A stretch of 64,000 nucleotides of DNA from a phage. Made by a program: the position numbers and the translations under genes. Shown in pieces: positions 1,388 through 63,892 of this stretch. The notes under the pieces are model-generated. The model had not been told where the DNA came from, did no database searches, and worked only from the letters and a program-made list of their open reading frames with translations. Location of the stretch: the sequence record PZ445530.1. One strand, written 5' to 3'. Positions within the stretch are counted from its first letter, which is position 1. Each line of letters opens with the position of its first letter.

Positions 1388-3455
1388 ATTTATGGCATCT
1401 GCATACAACCGTTTCGGTGAGCCAAACCCGAAAGCAACTAAGTATAAAAGTGGGGGAAGTGTGAAACGAGACTATCGTGATGAAAAAGAAGTTGAAACTG
1501 TAGAGACTGTTTTAGAAAATACTAAAATTGTCCCTGTCCCACAACAAAATATCGGTCTGATGGCTGCACAATATTTTGGTGTGCGATCAGCATTGTCACA
1601 AGAAGACGGTGTGACAGTCACTGCAACATATTTCCCATATTACGACCGCTACGGAAATCTGTCCGGTTTCAAAAAGCGTGACTGGACTATTCCTAAAGAA
1701 CAAAGGGGCCACTTCTCCGTTGTTGGCATCGTAAAGGCCAACTCCCAGATGTTTGGTCAAAAGCTGTGTGCATCTTCCAACAACCGTAAGCAGATTAACG
1801 TTTGTGAGGGGGAAGGTGATGTTATTGCAGCATGGCAGGCTGCATATCAGATACAAGTAAAAGGGATTCTCACCAACGCTAAAGCCCCGGCAAAGGTGAA
1901 GCAGTGGGCTAAAGAAGTCCAGGACGGGATCGATGCAGTTATCAACGGTGGTGATCTGGCAGGAAAACCATGCCTGCCTTTTGTTGGAATTAACTGTGGA
2001 TGTGCAAACGCAGTAGATACTTTTGCAAACAATGAGAAGTTTATCCGTAGCTATGGAACAGTTGTGCTGGCAATGGATAACGATGCAGCTAACGAGGTAG
2101 AGAAGCAAAAACACGTCATTAAAGGTGTTGAGGCCACGCACAATATCGCAGCATTTTTGATGGCTGATAACGTTTACCACGTAGAATACCCTGGTGAAGT
2201 AAACGACCCTGACGGTGTAAAAGATATCCGAGACATGCTGAAGGCTAAAAAGCTGGAAGATATTGTCAACATGTTCCGGCATCCTGTTAAATATGTGCCT
2301 GATGCGGTGTCGGATTTAGAAGACTTCTCTATCGAGTCTTTGCGGAAAAAGACTTCCAACGGGGTAGATATCAGCGCAGAGTTCCCAAAACTGCAAAAAA
2401 TGCTAAAAGGCTTGCACAAAGGGACACTCGTAATGCTTACAGGTCCATCAGGTGGCGGTAAAACAACCGTAGCTAAAAAACTGGAACACTGTATTGCAAG
2501 ATACCTAATGGACCCGACATGCCCGAAGGCTGATGACTATGAAGAGGATGATCGTCTATGTATGATCCATCTTGAGGAGGACCCAGAGGAAGCAATTAAC
2601 TCCTTGTATGCAAACCAGTTAGGGTTTGATGTTAAAGAGTTTGTTGAAGATCCTAGCCAGTTTTTAACTGATCAAGAACACGCAGAGATTCACCAATCAT
2701 GGGCAAAAGCTGGAAAAATCAAAGTGTTCAAACATTTCGGGTCTATTCCGGTGGATGAGTTGATTACCAAGCTTAAGCAAATGGTTTGCCTGTACCATTG
2801 CCGTTATATTGTGCTGGATCACCTGTCCATGGTAATTTCAGGGCTTAATGTTAAGGATGAGCGAAAAGAACTGGACATGGCTATGACTCAGCTGGCTGCG
2901 TTTTGTAAGCAGTTTAACGTGTTTATCTTGGTGATCGCTCACCTCAAACGTACAGAGATTGTGCCTCCTAAGGACAAGGATGGTAACCCGTTACCTTTCT
3001 GGTATCCTGTGCGAAAAGAGAATTTGCGAGGATCGGCGGGGCTTGAACAGTTGAGTTGGGTAGTCATAGGTGTCGAGGCCGAAGAAATGGTGGATCGTTC
3101 TCGTGGACGTGTCCGTCTGGTAGGTCTTAAAAACCGTCCAGCAAAAACTCTAGGTATTGCTGACACTTTGGTTATGGACCCGCACACAGGTAAGTTCCAT
3201 GATGCCAGTAATTGGTACTGGGACAAAGAAATGCAAATGTTTACAGACGGAGAAGGTGGGGAGGTTGTTTGGAGACCTCAGGCTATGTTTGAGGATCAGG
3301 AGCATGCAGTTGTAGAAACACCTATGGGCAAGGTTGTGGCTGATAAGGTTGTAACTCCTACTGTTAAGCCTGTTGACACGCAGGAAGACCTCCAGTACGA
3401 TGATCCGTCCTCTGACCATGTTCCTGGTTTTGAGGATGATGAAACACCTTTTTAA
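1377..3455 (+). CDS. bifunctional DNA primase-helicase (T7 gp4-like)
   Basis: TOPRIM-like CEGEGD; Walker A GPSGGGKTT; DnaB-like C-terminal half; acidic tail ending FEDDETPF. Confidence 0.8.
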   Translation: MGSKFMASAYNRFGEPNPKATKYKSGGSVKRDYRDEKEVETVETVLENTKIVPVPQQNIGLMAAQYFGVRSALSQEDGVTVTATYFPYYDRYGNLSGFKKRDWTIPKEQRGHFSVVGIVKANSQMFGQKLCASSNNRKQINVCEGEGDVIAAWQAAYQIQVKGILTNAKAPAKVKQWAKEVQDGIDAVINGGDLAGKPCLPFVGINCGCANAVDTFANNEKFIRSYGTVVLAMDNDAANEVEKQKHVIKGVEATHNIAAFLMADNVYHVEYPGEVNDPDGVKDIRDMLKAKKLEDIVNMFRHPVKYVPDAVSDLEDFSIESLRKKTSNGVDISAEFPKLQKMLKGLHKGTLVMLTGPSGGGKTTVAKKLEHCIARYLMDPTCPKADDYEEDDRLCMIHLEEDPEEAINSLYANQLGFDVKEFVEDPSQFLTDQEHAEIHQSWAKAGKIKVFKHFGSIPVDELITKLKQMVCLYHCRYIVLDHLSMVISGLNVKDERKELDMAMTQLAAFCKQFNVFILVIAHLKRTEIVPPKDKDGNPLPFWYPVRKENLRGSAGLEQLSWVVIGVEAEEMVDRSRGRVRLVGLKNRPAKTLGIADTLVMDPHTGKFHDASNWYWDKEMQMFTDGEGGEVVWRPQAMFEDQEHAVVETPMGKVVADKVVTPTVKPVDTQEDLQYDDPSSDHVPGFEDDETPF

Positions 3456-3513
3456 TGTTTAACAAAGAGTGGGAGGGGTAGTACAACCGCCTCCCCTTTA
3501 AGGAGAACTGTAT

Positions 3514-5937
3514 ATGAGCATGTGGTCGTTCGATTTTGAGTCATCCGGTTTGCTGGAAGACCCAGATCTTTATTATCACTGCGGCCTGTTTAAAGAGCTG
3601 AATAAGAACCGTTTTATGCTGTTCCTTCCTCTGAATGACCGCACACACTACTCCGAGGAGGATATAGAGAAGGCCAAGAACTTTATTCTGGCAAAGAAAA
3701 CTCTTTATAAGGATTTTGAAGTTCGCATAGCAGATTTTTCGGAGTTGGAAGGTTGGCTTACAGGAAATTCCGACTGGTCACCAACAGCTTTGAACTGCCA
3801 TAACTGCTACAGTTATGACTTTATGCTGATGGAGAGATTATCCGGTATTCATTTTGATATGTTCCGTGATCCTAAATGTATGGGGACTATCAACGACCAC
3901 CAGGTTAACCTGTTTGATACGTTGGCGATGAGCCGAATCTTGTGGCCTGATCGCCCTTTACCAAAAGGTTGTCCGGACTCCGTATTCAACCCGGTTACTA
4001 AGAAAATGCAGCCTGTTGGTCCTCACGGCCTTATGGCATGGGGCTACGCCCTTGGTAACCAGAAAGTTCAAATTGATGATTGGCGCGATCTTCCGTTGTG
4101 GAAGTATGTGGATCGTGTATTCGAGGACGTTATCATCCAGGAGCTACTCTGGAAAGAGCTGGTAGCGGAATCAAAAGGTGTATTCTACGGCAAATCTGAC
4201 ATGCAGAACTTTATGTACGATCCTGCCAAAGAGAAGCCGAAAGGGTTCAAGAAGATCACCTGGAAGAACGCATTGCGCCGGGGTATGCTGCAACACTTCC
4301 TGATGGAGCTGCAGGCCCGTCAGGGTGTGTATTTTGACATAGATGGAGCTATTGCTTTACGTGACCGTTGCGATGCGTGGATGAAAGAAATCGCTGATCG
4401 TGTTGAACCACAACTGCCTTTAAAAGAGCTGTCAATGTCTCAGCGGCCCAAGTTCCCTGAAAAGCCGTTTAACCAAGATGGGACAATCTCTAATAATGGT
4501 TGGAAATGGTTAAAAGATAAGCTTGGCTATCCTGTGGACATGAGTGCTTTAGAGTTCAAAGCCCCACCTAAGCGAGCATTTACCTCTACAGGAGATGTCA
4601 GTAAGATGGGGATAAAATGGTGTGAAGAGATGGGCTGCAAAGACCACGATAAGATGGCTGATTTCTTGAGAGGCTATATTAAGGGCACCTCCACACCACA
4701 ACCTTTACCTAAAGAGCTGATGGATCAGGCAATAAGCGATCTGCAGCAGAAGCGAATGCCTGACTGCAAGATACCTATGAAAATCAGCAATCAGGACGAT
4801 ATTAAGCGATACCTGATCAGTGCTGGTTGGCTTCCGACAATGTGGAGAACTAAGGATGTAACTAAAGACAGCAAGAAGAAAGCTTTACCTGATGCAGATG
4901 TTGATGCACGAGTATATGCATATATGGACGAGCTTTTGGAGTCAGAGTATTGTGACCTAATTATCAACTTCTGGAACAAAACTGATGCTAAGTTCCAGAC
5001 AACCGTGCACAAGTTCCGAAGCTTTCCTAACTCCGAAAGGATTAAAAAGGAAGTATTCGGGAAAATACGTAGAAAAGCTAGGGCACTTATTACTTCTCCG
5101 CAACTGAAAGATACGTTTGGACACCTGTGTCCGAATCTTGAAAAATTGAACGGAGAGATGGCTAAAGATATCGTCTTATGGTTATCATTGCGAAACCGCA
5201 GATCGGTACTTGATCCAATCAAGGAGGATAAGGTTGACACTGGTCTTCTTAATCACCCACGTTTGAAGATTGACCATAAGCTTCCTGCTAAAAGCTCTGG
5301 ATTAACAAACACTTCCAGACAGAAACACAGTATTTGTGCAAACATGCCTAAACCCTCTCCTAAAGTGGTTATGGGTAAAGAGATGCGTAGCTTGTGGGGT
5401 GTTCCTCCAGGATACTTTGAGATCGGTATCGACGGGTCCAACTTAGAGCAGCTTATCGGGGCTTGGGGTGCCTTTGAGTTCGACAACGGCCTGTATTACG
5501 ATGTTGTAAGTAACGGAGACGCACACCAAAACAATGCTGAGGCATATACAAAAGTAGCAGGCAGAGAGGTGTCCCGTAACGACGGTAAACCTATCACGTA
5601 TGGGGTTATGTACGGGGCACAAAAAGATAAAGTTGCAGATATGCTGGACATCTCTCCAGAGTTGGGACAAAGGGTAATCGATGCGCTTTGGGATGCCAAC
5701 CCTGGTCTTAAGGGCCGTAAAGAGGATCTGGAGAAATTCTGGGAAGCAACGGGTAAGAAGTTTATCTACTCTTTTGATGGTCATGCCATCTGGACCCGAT
5801 CTAAACACTCTTTACTTAATGCATACCAACAGAATGGTGGTGCATCGCTGTGTGACTTGGTTGGGATACTTATGCACCACCAAATGGTGAAGCGTGGGTG
5901 GTACGATGAAGGTGTTCGTCGTATTATCTATTACCAT
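3514..5937 (+). CDS. DNA polymerase family A, exon 1 (3'-5' exo domain plus polymerase motifs through motif B)
   Basis: exo motif FDFESSGL; motif B KPITYGVMYGAQ; frame ends ...IIYYH immediately before stop, where motif C HDE is expected. Confidence 0.8.
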
Positions 5938-15119: not shown

Positions 15120-15700
15120 GGGATTTCTAAAATGGATTTCCTCCTTTTGATATTTCACCGGGCTGGATATTTTAAAATTCTTAGAAAATCAGAAAATGGA
15201 TCGAAAACTAAAATGGATTTTTCAGAGTAGGCGCGACAAGCTGAATAACTCATCCTATCGTTTGCACCATATTCCAGGCCACCATTATAGATTTTCCACA
15301 CATGCTAACCTCCCTCTACTAGAACTTCCTCCACTTGCCCTTAACCTTCTATGGTAACAATCTAACCACTATCTTGAAGTTGCGGTGCAGCTTTCCAAGT
15401 ACTCGATCTGTTTTTCATTTCATGGCTTGGATTTTCTGAAAATTTTTCTCGATAAATTTCTCAGTACTCGATCTGTTTTTCGTTTTCTGAATCGGATTTT
15501 CTGGAAATCGTTCCGGATCTCGACCTGAAATTTTTGGGGACGAAATCGATTTTTCGTTTTCAGAAATGGATTTTTAAAATTTCTATATGGGAATATTTTA
15601 TGGGATACTGTTTTATAGGAAATTGTTACGGAGGGTAATTAGCATGCTAATTAAATTTATTAAATGCGAGGAGTTCTCATTTAGAATTTTGAATGATAAT
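15120..15700. repeat. AT-rich non-coding region with short direct repeats (AAATGGATTT x4, AGTACTCGATCTGTTTTTC x2)
   Basis: no ORF with SD; repeated motifs visible by eye. Confidence 0.5.
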
Positions 15701-16623: not shown

Positions 16624-17022
16624 ATGAAAACCACAACCTTTAATTTTGACAATGCCGACTTCTCTTTTTCTGATGTCAAGAACTGCCGCCGTGATCGTGG
16701 ATTTTACAAGGCTTATAATCTGGTTGGCCTGGACGATGATAATAATTTGCACGAAGTAGCGGAGATCCGGTACTATGCCGCCGCCAGCGGTAACACTAAC
16801 TACTGCGTTTTTTGGATACACGACAACAAGAACAATAAGTACGGTTATACTGGCGGCAAGGCGAGCGGTCACGGTTATGATAAAGCTAACGCAGCACTTG
16901 AGAGCGCATTAAATGCTATGGGGATCACTGCCAACGGCTGGATCTACGAAGAAGAGTTTTTGTCGGCACTTGCTGACCACCTAGGCTATAAAAAGCACAT
17001 TGTAACATGTGCCCACGAATAA
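16624..17022 (+). CDS. hypothetical protein
   Basis: 132-aa ORF, SD AAGAGGA. Confidence 0.55.
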   Translation: MKTTTFNFDNADFSFSDVKNCRRDRGFYKAYNLVGLDDDNNLHEVAEIRYYAAASGNTNYCVFWIHDNKNNKYGYTGGKASGHGYDKANAALESALNAMGITANGWIYEEEFLSALADHLGYKKHIVTCAHE

Positions 17023-17029
17023 AAAATTA

Positions 17030-17057
17030 TTGACACGCTGCAAAATTCAAGTAAACT
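17030..17057 (+). promoter_or_regulatory. sigma70-type promoter followed by 5'UTR hairpin GGCGGGG-atgttt-CCCGCC (~17068-17086)
   Basis: TTGACA-16nt-TAAACT. Confidence 0.5.
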
Positions 17058-17105
17058 AGACACAAAAGGCGGGGATGTTTCCCGCCAGCACAAAGGAAAA
17101 AGATC

Positions 17106-17510
17106 ATGAATAAGAACGTACGCCGCATCATGAACGAACTGGCAAACGATGAAAAAATTATTGACATGCATTTATTCAACATTTGCCGCCGTTGTGTAAC
17201 ATATAACAACCGCGCCGCAAAAGCGCGTGAGATGAACGCAAAAGGCACCTTAAAGCCATTCCAGGTGGTGGTAAAGGCCATTAAAGATGTAACTAATACG
17301 GCAAACCAGGTACAGGGGAACACCAACGAGAGTACCAATATTGATCCGGCTTACATCATGAAACGGATCCGGACCTGCAAGAACAAAGAGCAAGTGTATA
17401 ATATCATAGACTGGTTGGATTCTATGGGCGATGTGGTTTACAATAGGTTTTCTGCAGCTATCGAGATCCAGCTTGACAGGTTGGACGGTAAAGTACTGAA
17501 AACTTACTAA
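17106..17510 (+). CDS. hypothetical protein
   Basis: 134-aa ORF, SD AAGGAAA. Confidence 0.55.
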   Translation: MNKNVRRIMNELANDEKIIDMHLFNICRRCVTYNNRAAKAREMNAKGTLKPFQVVVKAIKDVTNTANQVQGNTNESTNIDPAYIMKRIRTCKNKEQVYNIIDWLDSMGDVVYNRFSAAIEIQLDRLDGKVLKTY

Positions 17511-17512
17511 GT

Positions 17513-17560
17513 TTATTTTTAGATGGCCTTGACTTCAGGGCCATCAATAAAGTAAACTAA
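17513..17560 (+). repeat. repeated intergenic element containing hairpin GATGGCC-TTGACTTCA-GGGCCATC and promoter-like TTGACT/TAAACT (copy 1)
   Basis: near-identical copies at ~18134-18180 and ~21853-21898; variant at ~18472-18520. Confidence 0.55.
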
Positions 17561-17591
17561 TCTCAACTAAGCGAAAAAAGGGGGCTTTAAG

Positions 17592-17711
17592 ATGAGCACT
17601 ACACGCCAATACACAAAGGTAACTATTATCGTTTGCGTTGTCGGTTACATCCTGGCGCAAATGTTAATGAGTAGCGCTAACAGTTTTGCAAAATTTTTCT
17701 TAAATTTTTAA
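17592..17711 (+). CDS. small hydrophobic peptide (39 aa)
   Basis: ATG after AAGGGGG SD; TM-like TIIVCVVGYILAQMLM. Confidence 0.35.
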   Translation: MSTTRQYTKVTIIVCVVGYILAQMLMSSANSFAKFFLNF

Positions 17712-17739
17712 TTGACAAACTAACTTAGATCGATATACT
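17712..17739 (+). promoter_or_regulatory. sigma70-type promoter
   Basis: TTGACA-16nt-TATACT; hairpin GGGAAaactTCCC in 5'UTR. Confidence 0.55.
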
Positions 17740-17790
17740 TAAACACGTAAACGGGAAAACTTCCCAGAGCACACAAAAGGAGAAAACACC

Positions 17791-18132
17791 ATGACTACTA
17801 TGACCGCCGCAGAAAAAGCTATGCAGATCGCCGCGCTGAAAAAACAGATCGCAGACCTTGAGAACAAGATCGACAACTTTGAAATCGACGAGGACAAGTA
17901 CGACGAAAACTATGATGAATGGTTAGACGAGATCTACGGCGAAATTATGATCGGAAACATTTCTTTTCTTCCGTCGCGTATCCTCAAGGAGCTAGATCCT
18001 ATCGCTTACCGCTGCGGATTTAGCGACTACATCGACAGCCTGGATATTGAGGAAGATGAAGAATACCAGGAACTACAGACAGAGTTAGAAGAAGCAAAAG
18101 AAGAGCTTGCGGAGCTGGAAGAAAACGAGTAA
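17791..18132 (+). CDS. highly acidic coiled-coil protein
   Basis: 113 aa, about one third Asp/Glu; SD AAGGAGA. Confidence 0.55.
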   Translation: MTTMTAAEKAMQIAALKKQIADLENKIDNFEIDEDKYDENYDEWLDEIYGEIMIGNISFLPSRILKELDPIAYRCGFSDYIDSLDIEEDEEYQELQTELEEAKEELAELEENE

Positions 18133-18133
18133 G

Positions 18134-18180
18134 ATTATTTTTAGATGGCCTTGACTCCAGGGCCATCAATAAAGTAAACT
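18134..18180 (+). repeat. repeated hairpin/promoter-like element (copy 2)
   Basis: ATTATTTTTAGATGGCCTTGACTCCAGGGCCATCAATAAAGTAAACT. Confidence 0.55.
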
Positions 18181-18221
18181 TTATACTGTTAACACTGAAC
18201 TAATTCAGAGGAGTTAAAACC

Positions 18222-18467
18222 ATGGCAGCACTAATCACCAAATATTATGCCCCTACCAACACCAAAAGCGCCCGTATCATGGTAAAAGGCTTCGGACGTA
18301 AAAAGGTTTACACCTGGGATTATGCCTTAGACATGGAAGACAACTACACCAACGCGATGACCGATTTTATTAATGATCTGAACACGCGGATCTTGACAAA
18401 TTATAAAATTACCGATATTGCCTATATAGGGGAAGGCGGGATCTGTTTTGTCGGTATCGTCAAATAA
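18222..18467 (+). CDS. hypothetical protein
   Basis: 81-aa ORF, SD GAGGAG. Confidence 0.55.
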   Translation: MAALITKYYAPTNTKSARIMVKGFGRKKVYTWDYALDMEDNYTNAMTDFINDLNTRILTNYKITDIAYIGEGGICFVGIVK

Positions 18468-18542
18468 GCTGTTTTTTCGGTGGTCCTGGTAGCAGGGCCA
18501 TCTATAAAGATAGTTTATCAACACAATGAAAGGAGAAAGTAC

Positions 18543-18890
18543 ATGATCAGCGGGGCAAGTTTTATTATTGGCGCTATTGCTACGGCTTTAATTGTAAACA
18601 AGATCCAATCTAAAAACGAAAAAGAGAGCAACGCGCTCACAGAATACCCATTTTGGGTATTCAACGACAATGAAGACTACATTATCAAGTACAAGAATGA
18701 GAAGGGCGACCAGGTAACACCGCGACCGATCCCGGCCTACAAGATGCAAGAAACACTATACCGCCTAAAGGCTGGAGGCGCAAAAATCGTAGACTTTTGG
18801 GGATATGATTGCAAGGATCAGGAGGTTATAAAACGGCGTATCCGGGCTATTCAGGCCAATATTGAAGTTAGCAAGGGGGGGAATATATGA
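18543..18890 (+). CDS. putative membrane-anchored protein
   Basis: ATG after AAAGGAGAAAG SD; N-terminal TM SGASFIIGAIATALIV. Confidence 0.5.
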   Translation: MISGASFIIGAIATALIVNKIQSKNEKESNALTEYPFWVFNDNEDYIIKYKNEKGDQVTPRPIPAYKMQETLYRLKAGGAKIVDFWGYDCKDQEVIKRRIRAIQANIEVSKGGNI

Positions 18891-19084
18891 AGATTAATTT
18901 TGAGAAGATTGTAAAGCGATCTCATGATTCCGAAGAGCTGCCGGAACGACGCCAACGTAACAATAAACTGAATAAGCCAAAAAGATTTGGAAAGATCTGG
19001 CGAAATCATTATGATCGTAAATTGCCTGGCCTACTTTTGGAACGTGAACGACAGGCAGAACGATACCGCCATAAAGACAAATAA
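18887..19084 (+). CDS. small basic protein
   Basis: 65 aa, Arg/Lys-rich; start overlaps upstream stop. Confidence 0.45.
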   Translation: MKINFEKIVKRSHDSEELPERRQRNNKLNKPKRFGKIWRNHYDRKLPGLLLERERQAERYRHKDK

Positions 19085-19242
19085 CAACCAACGCCCCCGC
19101 CATTGTGCGGGGCTTTTTATTTCTATCCTACGAATAGCGCCCCTGGTTGGCCCTGTAAGCGCCAAAAAGGCCCCACCTATGCAATCGCCCCCTTTAACCT
19201 GAAAACATCGCCCAGGGCCGTTTCATGGCGTTAAAAATATCA

Positions 19243-19270
19243 TTGACATCGTCAACAGGTTAGCTATACT
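19243..19270 (+). promoter_or_regulatory. sigma70-type promoter
   Basis: TTGACA-16nt-TATACT. Confidence 0.55.
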
Positions 19271-19302
19271 AACCACATCAAAGAGAGAAAGGAGTAAACG
19301 CC

Positions 19303-19563
19303 ATGCGTAAATTAAAAAATTTTGATAAAGTTGATGTTGTCCTGAATAATTTTTACTACTGCAACAACAAGGCCATTTGGTGGCGTGATAGTTCCACCGA
19401 TAAAGTCAAGGCGCGCTTTCTCCAGGGGCACTGGCAAGGCCGCCCAGTGATTAAAATCATGGGGCAATTGGTAGCGTTTAAAAATTGCCGCCGTGTTGAT
19501 GACGTTGAGGAGATTTTAAACATTTTGCGCCACAATAATTTAAAAAATAGTGTTGACAAGTAA
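19303..19563 (+). CDS. hypothetical protein
   Basis: 86-aa ORF, SD AAAGGAG. Confidence 0.55.
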   Translation: MRKLKNFDKVDVVLNNFYYCNNKAIWWRDSSTDKVKARFLQGHWQGRPVIKIMGQLVAFKNCRRVDDVEEILNILRHNNLKNSVDK

Positions 19564-19580
19564 ATCTCAATAAGTATAAT
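19553..19580 (+). promoter_or_regulatory. sigma70 consensus promoter
   Basis: TTGACA-16nt-TATAAT; hairpin GGCGGG-aaaactta-CCGCC downstream. Confidence 0.6.
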
Positions 19581-19637
19581 TAAACACACAGGCGGGAAAA
19601 CTTACCGCCACTAACAAAGAAAACAGGAGAAAATATC

Positions 19638-20262
19638 ATGACCACCGTTAACATTACCACAGGTTACAATTTATCTTTCGACGTGCTGACCGATGAACAA
19701 AAAAGAAAAAGCTATTGAAATGGTCCGCGAAAGAGAAGAACACAGCGGGGATAACTTTTTTGCAGAAAGTGTAATTGAAGACTACAAAGAACATATCTTT
19801 CCAGAGTATGGCCTTGAAGATACCAAGGTACATTGGTCCGGCTTTTGGTGCCAGGGCGACGGCGCGTCAATCAGTGCGGAAAACGTGGATTTAGAAAAAT
19901 TCTTGCGTAAAGTCAAGTCTCTGACTAAATTCCGCTCAATTCGTCACTTGTTCGGCACAATGCACGATGGCGAGCTATCCGCAAGTGTTGAGCGTGATCC
20001 ATATAGCCGCTATAGTCACGAAAACACTGTAAGCGGGTACATCGATACTACATGGCTAGACCTGACAGCCAAGCAAGAAAGTAAGGTTGAAGAGCTGGAA
20101 GAGTTGATCACCGAGAACGTACGGGAACTATCCCGCAAGGTTTACGTAGACCTGGAGCAAGCTTATCTTGAACAATTTACTACCGAAAACCTGATCGGCC
20201 TTATCGAGGCCAATGATTGGCGGTTTGATGTGGATGAATATGGAGAGATGAGTTTTTCATAA
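19638..20262 (+). CDS. hypothetical protein; reading frame interrupted, needs a +1 shift in an A6 run (~19699-19704) or the sequence has a homopolymer indel
   Basis: promoter, hairpin and AGGAGA SD serve ATG 19638, which stops after 26 codons; long ORF 19693..20262 continues in +1 frame without its own SD. Confidence 0.4.
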
Positions 20263-20270
20263 ATAAAGTG

Positions 20271-20298
20271 TTGCAATAATCTAAAAACCTGCTATATT
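20271..20298 (+). promoter_or_regulatory. sigma70-type promoter
   Basis: TTGCAA-16nt-TATATT; hairpin GGGGCAA-gacgtt-TGCCCC downstream. Confidence 0.5.
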
Positions 20299-20352
20299 AA
20301 AACTCAAGGGGCAAGACGTTTGCCCCCCACACAAAACAAAGAGGAAAACATC

Positions 20353-20733
20353 ATGAAAAACACTACTAAAGCTATTGACACCGTCATGTTTAACCTGGTT
20401 ACCTTTCGCGAGGATATGAAAGATCTTCCACGTGAAACAGTGTGCGATCACATTGAAAACTATCGCAAACTAATCAAAGAGTTGCCTTTAAAACGTGATC
20501 AGTATGCGGCTAACGCCATGCTTAATGCCATGATCAAAAAGATGATCCAGTGTGATTTAACTCTGGCCTATGACTATGCGGGTGGTCGTTTTGCAGTATA
20601 CAATCAGCCCGTGCCCGGTATGGGCACCACCGAAGAATTGCACGCGTTAAATCTGAAGCAAGATGTATGGGATAACATGCCCCGCGTGGTGGTGTGGGCA
20701 GAAAGCGGAAAGATTTACGGCGATAATTTTTAA
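20353..20733 (+). CDS. hypothetical protein
   Basis: ATG after AAAGAGGAAAA SD. Confidence 0.55.
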   Translation: MKNTTKAIDTVMFNLVTFREDMKDLPRETVCDHIENYRKLIKELPLKRDQYAANAMLNAMIKKMIQCDLTLAYDYAGGRFAVYNQPVPGMGTTEELHALNLKQDVWDNMPRVVVWAESGKIYGDNF

Positions 20734-20797
20734 TCAGGTAACAGGCGGCATATTTGCCGCCTTATTGTTAAACAGAGCTGCAAAAGAGGTACATAGA

Positions 20798-21169
20798 ATG
20801 GAATTTATTATTTTGGCTGTAGTAGTTGCCTTGTTCAACGCCTGGATAGCTGGCAAAATAGGTAGATCCGCTTTTCTATGGTTTGTTATATCTATTTTCC
20901 TGGGAGTGGTTGCAACCATTGTACTAGTTATCCTTGCAATTGTTGACAAGGATAATAATAAGAAGGGTAAAGTATTTTCCGACCTGTATGACGCCCAAAC
21001 TTTTGTTAACGCCTATTATAGTGATCTTCCGGTCTCCTTGCGCTGCAGCCTGGCGCAACAAGTTTTTGATGAGGCTAAAACCAGAGATCAAGCCCATGAG
21101 ATATGTTTAACTGAGGCGGATCGCCTATTTGAGAGGAATAGAAAATATGTGGGCCAGCCGTTTAAATAA
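20798..21169 (+). CDS. putative membrane protein (2 TM)
   Basis: ATG after AAAGAGG SD; hydrophobic segments FIILAVVVALFNAWIAG and LWFVISIFLGVVATIVLVILAIV. Confidence 0.5.
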   Translation: MEFIILAVVVALFNAWIAGKIGRSAFLWFVISIFLGVVATIVLVILAIVDKDNNKKGKVFSDLYDAQTFVNAYYSDLPVSLRCSLAQQVFDEAKTRDQAHEICLTEADRLFERNRKYVGQPFK

Positions 21170-21392
21170 TACCACGTTAATTAATCCCTTTAGTGAAGAT
21201 TTGAAGCCAGCCGCCTGGCGTGATGGATTCAATAACGAACGCTTTATTTTCAAGCCTGATCTTGAGGAATTTTATAACAATGGATCGAACAACAGCGGAG
21301 ATAATTTTTCTTGGGATGTGCGTGGTGATGGTACTCCTGGGGGCCATTGTAAACCACGTCACTACTACCAGGAGGAAAGGGGGAGACGATGA
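21147..21392 (+). CDS. hypothetical protein
   Basis: ATG after GAGGAA SD. Confidence 0.4.
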   Translation: MWASRLNNTTLINPFSEDLKPAAWRDGFNNERFIFKPDLEEFYNNGSNNSGDNFSWDVRGDGTPGGHCKPRHYYQEERGRR

Positions 21393-21508
21393 CAACCAAG
21401 GATAAGCCCCGTACCGATAAGGCGCGCCGGGTTATGGTATGGCTTGAGATCATCGCCCTTGAAATATTGCTAGGCGTAGGGATGTACTTTATCGCTGTAA
21501 GTAACTAA
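21389..21508 (+). CDS. small membrane peptide (39 aa)
   Basis: ATGA overlap with upstream stop; GGAGG SD; hydrophobic C-terminal half. Confidence 0.35.
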   Translation: MTTKDKPRTDKARRVMVWLEIIALEILLGVGMYFIAVSN

Positions 21509-21591: not shown

Positions 21592-21650
21592 AACAATCAA
21601 CGGGGAAACATCCCCGCCACACAAACAAAAGCCCGAAGAGGAGAAAGAAG

Positions 21651-21850
21651 ATGAGCAACAATATCCGCGTTATTAACTTCAAAAAGAAGAAAAAATTGCC
21701 GTGCTGATTGACGGTCAAGAAATCTTCAAGGGCGACTATGAAGATCATCAAACGGCGATTAGTATCACTCGCGTGATTGGTTATCATAATTTCTACCCCC
21801 AAGGCGCTGAGGCAGCAGTTAAACGAATCAAAGAGATTGTAGGCCTGTAA
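21651..21850 (+). CDS. hypothetical 66-aa protein requiring a -1 shift at AAA-AAG (~21681-21687), or sequence indel
   Basis: ATG with GAGGAGAAAG SD stops after 18 codons; -1 frame continues ...EEKIAVLIDGQEIFKGDYEDH... to stop at 21850. Confidence 0.4.
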
Positions 21851-24930: not shown

Positions 24931-27360
24931 CTTCTCCTACCATAAACGGCCCTACCTGGCAAGTGGAATAATTGACTAGCCATCAATCCCACATACTGTA
25001 CAAATATACATGGAAAATAACTATTGCATAATTTTTCATTGTGTGGTAGCAAGTCCATTTTTACCCGTTTTCTCTCCCAAAAGTGCACGTAATGCCGCTA
25101 TTGCACAAATTTTAACCTGATGCACATCTCCAATATCTTGTCAACAACTAAAAATCTTTATAAGTCATACACTTACACAGCATCGAAAGCGTGTTCTACG
25201 CGAAAAATCGAGTATAACTATAGCCGCCAGATCTCAGAATTCACGTACGCACGCCATTCTATAGCCTGCAAAGTATTTATTCCAACCACAGAATAACGGA
25301 ATAGTCAATACCTGCATAAAATAATTATTCGTGCAAACTGCATAACATAAATCAGCTCAGGTGTCAACATTTTTCGTAAACAGTCCGAAATTATAACGAT
25401 GAGTTATCATAAACAGAGAAATCTTTAGTCGTCTAATGTTTACTGTACATTACTATACTGACTGGAATCATTAGATGACTAAGAGAAAGATAAGAAATAA
25501 TTAATAATGTAATTATTTTACCTGTAACAATAAGGCAACTATGCAAACGAATGGCATGGCGCGACGGAGTCGCGACATAATATAAAAGCAGTAACCATCA
25601 CCCCCGTGATAGTTTGTCTGCAAACTATTAATCAGATCATAGTTGCCTTGTATTTAGTTAATCATGACATAACAAGCAAGGCAACTATAGATCTGCTAAT
25701 AGTTGCCCTGCTTTTATATTATGTCATGCTAATTATAATCAGTGCGATTATTGTCATGTATAATTATTGTCATGCAAACGAATGGCATGGCTGATTATCG
25801 GTGTGTAAACAGTCAATCATGTAAATGGTTAGCATGTGAACAATCAGGAATGTAAACAATCCAGTGTGTAAACTAATAGGTGTGTAAAAGTGTCATGTTG
25901 TGTCAGTTAGGTCACATTATGTCAGACAAGTTTTTCTCCTCTTTGTCAAGTGCTGCATGAAAAATTTACAAACTGGTATGGTAGCATTTTTGCGGCCCTG
26001 TTTACATTCAGTAATGTATGTATAATCCTTGTTGTGTGGGCGTTTAGACGTCTAGACGGTTGGAAGTCCACAGGTCAATATCTAATCTATCGGCTGCTAA
26101 CTATATCCCACACAAATAGCAAGAAATATGATTGTTATATGCGTAAACTGTAACTCATGTTATCAATCCCTGTATGGATCGCCAGTGGTGCGCATAATGG
26201 GTATTATGTTAAATTGCCCGTAATGATAACTATTCTCACAATGATAGGTATTCTCATTCATCCACATAAAATAGGTTGCAAATGTTGTGCCACTGTGTGA
26301 ACGGCCTGGCCTATTAATTTGCCTCACTGCCTTGATATTTGAGAATTGTTATAAGAATGAGAAGTATTCCCATTTCGTCCGCCTGGCAGCACTCCTGTAG
26401 GTCAGGTCAAAATCGTGGTAGAATTGGGCCTGTTCAGATATTTCTGGCTGACTCTTCAGGTCTGTGTGGGAAAAGCCAACCTCTCCGGCGGGGCAGGGGG
26501 TCATGACGGGAAAATTGCAGGTCAATTAAAAATTTACGTGGTGTATGAAGCGCTCTTCAGGTAAGGCATGTATTATGGGATGAAACCCGCTTCAGGCAAT
26601 GATATTTGTGGGTGTGATATTTGCTGGAAAGCCAGATATGACGGGACTCCCGGCGGGGATGGGGTAGTACAGACAGGGAAAATATGAGAATGTAGTTGGG
26701 GAAATTGATCAGACAGGTAGAGTATGGAATATGTTACAAGTATGTTAAATATGGAGGTTGAATATCTGTAGGATTTGTGTGTAAAATCAAAGACTTAAGG
26801 GGTGTTGTGGTATTTTCTATAAATAATTCAAGTTTAATAGGCAATATTTGTCTCTATCCGTTTTGTGTGGTAAACAGATTCAGATTAGATTGGTTTACAA
26901 GTGTATACATAATATACAAATTAAAGATACAAGAAACCCCCCTCCCCCCTTCGGCTACCATTCACCTTTTCCTCTGACTGGTACTTAAACACTTATTCAG
27001 ACTCTTCAGGTTATCACCCATATATCATATGGCAGTGACTGGTGTCCTCCGGCCCCTCTTTCGTCACCCGTCCGCTTCGCCATGCTAATGCCATAGCCAA
27101 TGGTTCGGTTGTTCACCCTGTTCACTCAGGTGTATCTCCATACCCCTTCAAACCGAAGAGAACAGAAAACCCGAATTACTCGGTAAAAGAAAAGAGAAGA
27201 ACTTAATTTTATCAGGATAGGCAAGAATGTCAAGGCATGACTGCTCACTAAACAAGCAAACAGTCATGTGTGGAAGGTAAGTGATTGTGGTGGTGGGAAA
27301 TTTAGTTGAAAGATGTGTTATAGGTGCTTCCAGCACTTTAGCCGGGCAGCTAATTGTGTG
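24931..27360. repeat. 2.4-kb AT-rich non-coding region dense in direct and inverted repeats
   Basis: no ORF with SD; 20-bp direct repeat ATGCAAACGAATGGCATGGC at ~25541 and ~25772; inverted GGCAACTAT/ATAGTTGCC; GTGTGTAAAC x3; CTCTTCAGG x4; CCGGCGGGG x2. Confidence 0.55.
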
Positions 27361-61750: not shown

Positions 61751-61850
61751 TATAAACTATACCAGGTAATGCAATCGCACCAGTTTGATAGAAAAGCTCG
61801 TTACAAAGCGATACAGTGAGTTTTTCTATAACTTGAAGAGGGGGGCAGCT

Positions 61851-63726: not shown

Positions 63727-63801
63727 GCCCTGTTAGCTTAGTGGATAAAGCAGCGGCCTTCTAAGCCGTTGACACTGGTTCGAGTCCAGTACGGGGTGCC
63801 A
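63727..63801 (+). tRNA. tRNA-Arg (anticodon TCT), CCA encoded
   Basis: cloverleaf folded by hand: 7-bp acceptor, GCTT/AAGC D-stem, anticodon loop CTTCTAA, T-arm ACTGG-TTCGAGT-CCAGT. Confidence 0.75.
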
Positions 63802-63805
63802 AATT

Positions 63806-63892
63806 GGGGAGTTATCCCGTAGAGGTAGCGGTGTAGACTGTAAATCTATTGTCATTACGACTCGGGTGGTTCGACTCCACCACTTCCCACCA
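63806..63892 (+). tRNA. tRNA-Tyr (anticodon GTA), long variable arm, CCA encoded
   Basis: anticodon stem-loop GTAGA-CTGTAAA-TCTAT, T-arm GGTGG-TTCGACT-CCACC; close to E. coli tRNA-Tyr through anticodon and variable arms. Confidence 0.75.

Follow-up and report, generated by a model that had tools for sequence, protein, structure and literature searches.

The +1 frameshift of prfB, the gene coding for release factor 2 (RF2), takes place at a site that is conserved across bacteria and that combines an in-frame stop codon at the position of the shift with a Shine-Dalgarno (SD)-like stimulator 3 nucleotides (nt) upstream. Efficient transcriptional slippage is known from homopolymer runs of about 8-9 or more, and in the described cases, such as Thermus dnaX and the transposases of insertion sequence (IS) elements, these runs are conserved. 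The stretch of phage DNA analyzed here (sequence record PZ445530.1; the whole stretch of 64,000 nt, or 64 kb, is hereafter called the window) carries at positions 19638-20262 two overlapping open reading frames (ORFs) of 26 and 189 amino acids (aa), which a preliminary description made from the letters alone had attributed either to systematic homopolymer miscalls or to slippage-regulated expression. As suggested by our comparison with related phages, both ORFs very probably represent one conserved early gene, the homologue of gp180/ORF185 of phage rV5, which has received one extra A and which constitutes a null or hypomorphic allele or a consensus artefact and not a recoding device. The original observation comes down to the insertion of a single base, through mutation of the phage or through a lone miscall.

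The window belongs to an rV5-like coliphage of the genus Vequintavirus. Altogether, 118 phage records matched the 751 bases around the locus at 80-99% identity, the best of them being navn (99.2%), and over this gene more than 110 Vequintavirus genomes were 92-99% identical to the window, with rV5 and navn at 95-99% DNA identity. Over 24 kb, the closest phage record was ~95% identical. In navn, rV5, O157 typing phage 14, A6-1 and FFH2 the locus is annotated as a single 624-nt coding sequence (CDS) of 207 aa whose start and end correspond to ATG 19638 and to 20262 of the window, and the flanking genes and their order, which form an early-gene block, are the same in these five phages as in the window. 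The homologues are recorded under the names rV5 gp180/ORF185 (YP_002003682.1), navn_147 (QHR75047.1) and PHROG 5162. A separate observation concerns 17 GenBank records in the range MG065635-MG065690 that are named 'Campylobacter phage' (host C. jejuni); over this region these are 92-98% identical to Vequintavirus genomes from E. coli, and they look like mislabelled or contaminant genomes.

Profile comparison revealed how the conserved protein is divided between the two frames. The intact navn protein covers positions 2-200 of the PHROG 5162 profile (E = 6e-89), and the long ORF of the window covers positions 19-200 only (E = 4e-81), the first 18 being encoded in another frame; no single polypeptide of the window as written matches the profile over its full length. 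Deletion of one A gives a protein identical at 207 of 207 residues to navn QHR75047.1, and besides the extra A the two coding sequences differ by one synonymous base. This profile coverage, together with the complete identity after removal of one A, indicates that a single gene has been divided into the two ORFs and that their pairing is not due to chance. The window copy is a member of PHROG 5162 by descent, but a disrupted one. At 90% identity, the intact protein falls into a cluster of 250 members, of which the 15 listed are 207-208 aa long, and the exact 189-aa ORF was absent from a collection of 15 billion proteins.

The layout of the locus (Table 1) agrees with the preliminary description in most respects: the frame opened by ATG 19638 ends after 26 codons and is preceded by a full sigma-70 promoter, a hairpin and an SD sequence, and the long ORF in the +1 frame is devoid of an SD sequence and closed by a TGA just upstream. 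Codons 1-22 of the short ORF (19638-19703) constitute the authentic N-terminus of the 207-aa protein, residues 1-22 being identical to those of navn, and codons 23-26 (RKSY) with the following stop are an out-of-frame reading past the extra A. The long ORF joins the conserved protein at GAA 19705, the codon for residue 23, and follows it to residue 207. Its ATG 19693, ahead of which no AGGAG-like sequence was found on inspection, is a fortuitous start.

The zone in which the two frames overlap and could be joined spans positions 19690-19715 and holds both the A6 run and a second run, A5 at 19706-19710, separated from the first by a G. The statement that the frames are joinable only inside CAAAAAAG was overstated as long as it was drawn from the sequence alone; the alignment of relatives nevertheless places the lesion in the A6 run. 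In base-by-base alignments, C-AAAAAA-G-AAAAA-G of the window stands opposite C-AAAAA-G-AAAAA-G in all six relatives included. The second run was rejected as the site of the lesion, since the relatives have A5 there too. In comparison with rV5 gp180 and navn_147, the window copy thus carries A6 in place of A5 at codons 21-23, which changes CAA-AAA-GAA-AAA to CAA-AAA-AGA-AAA and gives rise to the 26-aa and 189-aa ORFs.

The extra A was found in the window only. An 86-nt probe spanning the run had no exact match in any of 114 phage records; in two complementary listings of the matches, every row spans 85 nt, one base short, apart from one partial match that covers 80 nt for 81. The exact A6 pattern, GACCGAYGAACAAAAAAGAAAAAGC, had no matches in the viral, metagenome and genome contig collections, and its A5 version matched 3 viral and 8 metagenome contigs exactly. 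The comparison with relatives therefore supports A5 as the ancestral state, the outcome that the preliminary description had equated with a simple error. As all six aligned relatives have A5, the tract shows none of the variation in length among isolates that marks a phase-variable contingency locus. Ribosomes that initiate at ATG 19638 would translate 22 authentic codons and four out-of-frame ones before they reach the stop at 19716, and the remaining 185 codons would be left without a ribosome-binding site. With these 185 codons deprived of a ribosome-binding site, the split gene would probably not be expressed, and the copy would be a null or strongly hypomorphic allele, or else a consensus artefact.

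The junction of the two frames bears a formal likeness to the described recoding systems. As in prfB, the frame would be regained by a +1 shift on a slippery codon that precedes a codon read slowly, and AAA-A followed by AGA in the 0 frame is formally shift-prone; as in Thermus dnaX and the IS-element transposases, a run of A stands where two frames meet. It could be proposed that the A6 allele yields the full 207-aa protein, in a regulated or leaky manner, through a +1 slip of tRNA-Lys on AAA-A or through RNA polymerase dropping one A, which we regard as very unlikely. A +1 slip on AAA(19701-03)-A does give the exact wild-type ...DEQK-EKAIE, with the junction peptide ...LTDEQKEKAIEMVR. E. coli uses AGA rarely, and the phage possesses its own tRNA-Arg(UCU), so the waiting time at AGA could shift during infection. 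Unlike the prfB site, however, the site in the window is unique to one sequence and has neither a stimulator nor a stop: no SD-like element (GGAGG- or AGGAG-like) was found in the preceding GTGCTGACCGATGAAC, no structured stimulator is visible beside the site, and the shift is needed by no relative, hence nothing about it is conserved, as the probe and pattern counts above indicate.

In contrast to the known cases of transcriptional slippage, the run in the window is unconserved and consists of only six A, followed by G and then A5, which is shorter than the runs that give efficient slippage. Furthermore, a neighbouring broken gene at 21651-21850 needs the opposite correction, so no common mechanism would serve both genes. 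Programmed +1 frameshifting and slippage-regulated expression, the latter being the second of the two explanations offered in the preliminary description, are thus disfavoured by an unconserved shift, a run that is too short and the lack of a visible stimulator. Slippage at A6 in the -1 direction was considered as well and rejected, as it leads into a dead-end frame with a TAA after about 23 codons. A genuine A6 that allows some full-length protein to be made by a +1 slip, in amounts falling as tRNA-Arg(UCU) accumulates, would constitute an accidental infection-stage-dependent switch, a scenario that we consider far-fetched. The rV5 genome paper makes no mention of a frameshift or homopolymer issue, and among the titles listed in a search of the literature on Vequintavirus and frameshifting none appeared relevant.

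The protein itself bears on whether its two parts could function as separate products. The AlphaFold model is confident (predicted local distance difference test, pLDDT, 87.9) and places the lesion inside a predicted helix comprising residues 19-35. Conservation of the N-terminal segment extends to homologues of only 27% identity; L17 and A25 hardly vary there, and the invariant residues of the protein include G68, F69, Q72, G73, D74, G75 and H127. Two proteins scanned singly against Pfam gave nothing at E <= 0.1, and 19 family members gave sub-threshold matches only, with a best E of 0.0046. NCBIfam returned no match, searches of PDB sequences returned nothing credible (best E = 0.2, to EngA), and the matches in BFVD were uncharacterised phage proteins only. 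The protein has a confidently predicted fold without a solved relative. One could imagine a 26-aa leader peptide and, by reinitiation at ATG 19693, a separate protein of 189 aa, because both ORFs have an ATG and the first stop lies 21 nt past the second ATG, so that terminating ribosomes would be near. This arrangement is found in no relative, however, ATG 19693 has no SD sequence, and a start located 21 nt upstream of the stop is badly placed for coupling. In the predicted compact fold, truncation would remove strand 9-13 and the beginning of helix 19-35. Two separate products therefore appear most improbable.

Whether the additional A is a mutation or a miscall was approached by a survey of the window, which was compared with four relatives over 1-41 kb and with three relatives over 40-64 kb. 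Insertions and deletions (indels) of a length not divisible by three (non-3n) were listed where they separate the window from every relative aligned at that position. Among 304 homopolymer runs of at least 5, the window carries six private run-length changes (Table 1), only two of which break a CDS, and two more private single-base insertions, at 21638 and 25760, lie outside homopolymer runs. The second broken gene is the one at 21651-21850, where the preliminary description had pointed to another case within 2 kb. Such a case indeed exists, and it requires a -1 and not a +1 correction: ATG 21651 reads 18 codons up to a stop at 21705-21707, and the remainder (GTG 21701-21850) is in the -1 frame. 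This change is as well confined to the window, as none of 120 records matched the corresponding 86-nt probe exactly.

If the A6 run were a consensus miscall, the phage itself would have A5 and its 207-codon gene would be intact; such a miscall falls under the explanation of the locus as one gene with an extra A, competes only with the reading of that A as a real mutation, and is a serious possibility, though we rate it somewhat below an even chance. With 454, Ion Torrent and nanopore data, errors typically concern the length of homopolymers. The A6 is unique with respect to the 114 phage records and absent from the three other collections, at a distance of 2 kb a further conserved small gene is broken by a second unique change in an A run, and the protein after repair matches an existing allele at 100% identity and shows no further damage, all of which a miscall would explain. 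Errors should, however, scale with the number of homopolymers, yet five of the six private changes fall within the accessory region at 18-27 kb, home to 26% of the runs (binomial P about 0.006), and both CDS-breaking changes sit among the accessory early genes. The polymerase, helicase, ribonucleotide reductase (RNR) and ligase genes were free of private non-3n indels, and no CDS-breaking unique indel was found in the other ~55 kb, parts of which are covered by fewer than three relatives.

Comparison with other genomes points in the same direction. The 86-mer around G7 is identical in phage EduardKellenberger (MZ501061.1), which was independently sequenced, and because of this identity G7 at 18875-18881 is a genuine polymorphism; a nearby run-length variant is thus shared with an independent genome, contrary to what is expected of an artefact. 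Moreover, each of the four relatives has 3-11 private non-3n indels of its own over about 45 kb, similar in kind and number to those of the window. Systematic homopolymer miscalls, the other explanation in the preliminary description, and in general an error spread over homopolymers regardless of gene importance, do not agree with these data, in which no core gene of replication or nucleotide metabolism is broken. Such a pattern is to be expected where real indels pass the filter of selection in dispensable early genes, and not where errors are spread evenly. As an observation on a deposited relative, navn has a private insertion (G6 at 15265-15270) shortly ahead of the CDS annotated as macro-domain; this CDS measures 399 nt in navn, and in typing phage 14 and FFH2 it reaches 459 nt. 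The insertion is likely another homopolymer frameshift.

Taken together, we slightly favour a genuine, very recent and strain-specific frameshift in an accessory and probably dispensable gene over a homopolymer miscall. Several points weigh against this preference. The A6 allele is unique, its sibling change 2 kb away (A6 to A5 at 21681-21685) is unique too, and both affect A runs of 5-6 nt. Being free of any other defect, the broken copy would look the same after a lone homopolymer miscall as after a mutation of very recent date. For the clustering test, the region (18-27 kb) was picked after the data had been seen, and curators often mend frameshifts in large named genes and not in small hypothetical ones, a habit that could mimic the observed distribution. 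A consensus error at the A6 site keeps a substantial share of the probability, if less than half. It is also conceivable, as a speculation to which we attach very little weight, that ribosomes slipping spontaneously by +1 on AAA-A, ahead of the rare AGA, restore a low level of wild-type protein.

Broken copies of the same gene were revealed in other public records, which speaks for a real mutation in the window too. In magaca (positions 3089-3713 of the stretch compared), the gene is split (magaca_194/195) by a change from T6 to T7 near codon 40, and in Alma (PHAGEALMA_171) the reading frame departs after LRKVK. The gene is disrupted as well in V18 (A0A220NUA2) and in the clusters P0033 and P0036, some of these copies being represented by several contigs or member sequences. 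As in the window, the gene is truncated or split in all these alleles, but the lesions lie at other sites and none of them in the A run. The protein P0043 was likewise noted among the disrupted copies in public records and assemblies. These alleles suggest that the gene has been repeatedly lost or repeatedly mis-sequenced, and its breakage, at differing sites, in a number of independent records of Vequintavirus suggests that it is dispensable under at least some propagation conditions.

The features of the locus, the private run-length changes and the tRNA genes of the window are compiled in Table 1. Reliance on E. coli-consensus promoters throughout the genome has been described for rV5 (PMC3606486).

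Table 1. Features at and around the split gene, window-private run-length changes and tRNA genes (positions in the window; strand given where recorded).
Feature	Position	Strand	State in relatives	Remarks
Sigma-70-type promoter, TTGACA-16 nt-TATAAT	19553..19580	+		12/12 consensus match; best within 17000-21500
5'-leader hairpin, GGCGG-N9-CCGCC	19591..19609	+		RNA fold centroid -10 kcal/mol; z = -2.07 vs shuffles
SD sequence, AGGAG	19625..19629	+		8 nt ahead of ATG 19638; direct reading of the sequence
Short ORF, 26 aa	19638..19718	+		ATG 19638-19640 opens MTTVNITTGYNLSFDVLTDEQKRKSY; stop TGA 19716-19718
TGA closing the +1 frame	19687..19689	+		One codon before ATG 19693
Long ORF, 189 aa	19693..20262	+		In the +1 frame relative to ATG 19638
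A6 run, site of the one-base insertion	19699..19704	+	A5 in all relatives examined	Within CAAAAAAG 19698-19705; splits the rV5 gp180 homologue
G7 run	18875-18881		G6 (or AG5) in most	Gene ending at 18890 altered in its final few residues only; spacing ahead of ATG 18887 changed
C5 run	19094-19098		C4	Edge of the terminator hairpin 19095-19112
A5 run	21681-21685		A6	Breaks the 66-codon gene from ATG 21651; needs a -1 correction
A5 run	26528-26532		A6	Non-coding
G6 run	61840-61845		GGAGG	SD sequence of the next gene, before ATG 61851
tRNA-Arg(UCU)	63727-63801			Decodes AGA, the codon created just after the A run in the broken frame
tRNA-Arg(UCU) and tRNA-Tyr(GUA) genes	63727-63892			

The finding is an ordinary one, and its meaning lies in how such loci of rV5-like phages are to be annotated. 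The 26-aa and 189-aa ORFs are to be described neither as two genes nor as a recoding event; they represent one frameshifted homologue of rV5 gp180, or possibly a sequencing error, and the same advice holds for the small gene at 21651-21850.
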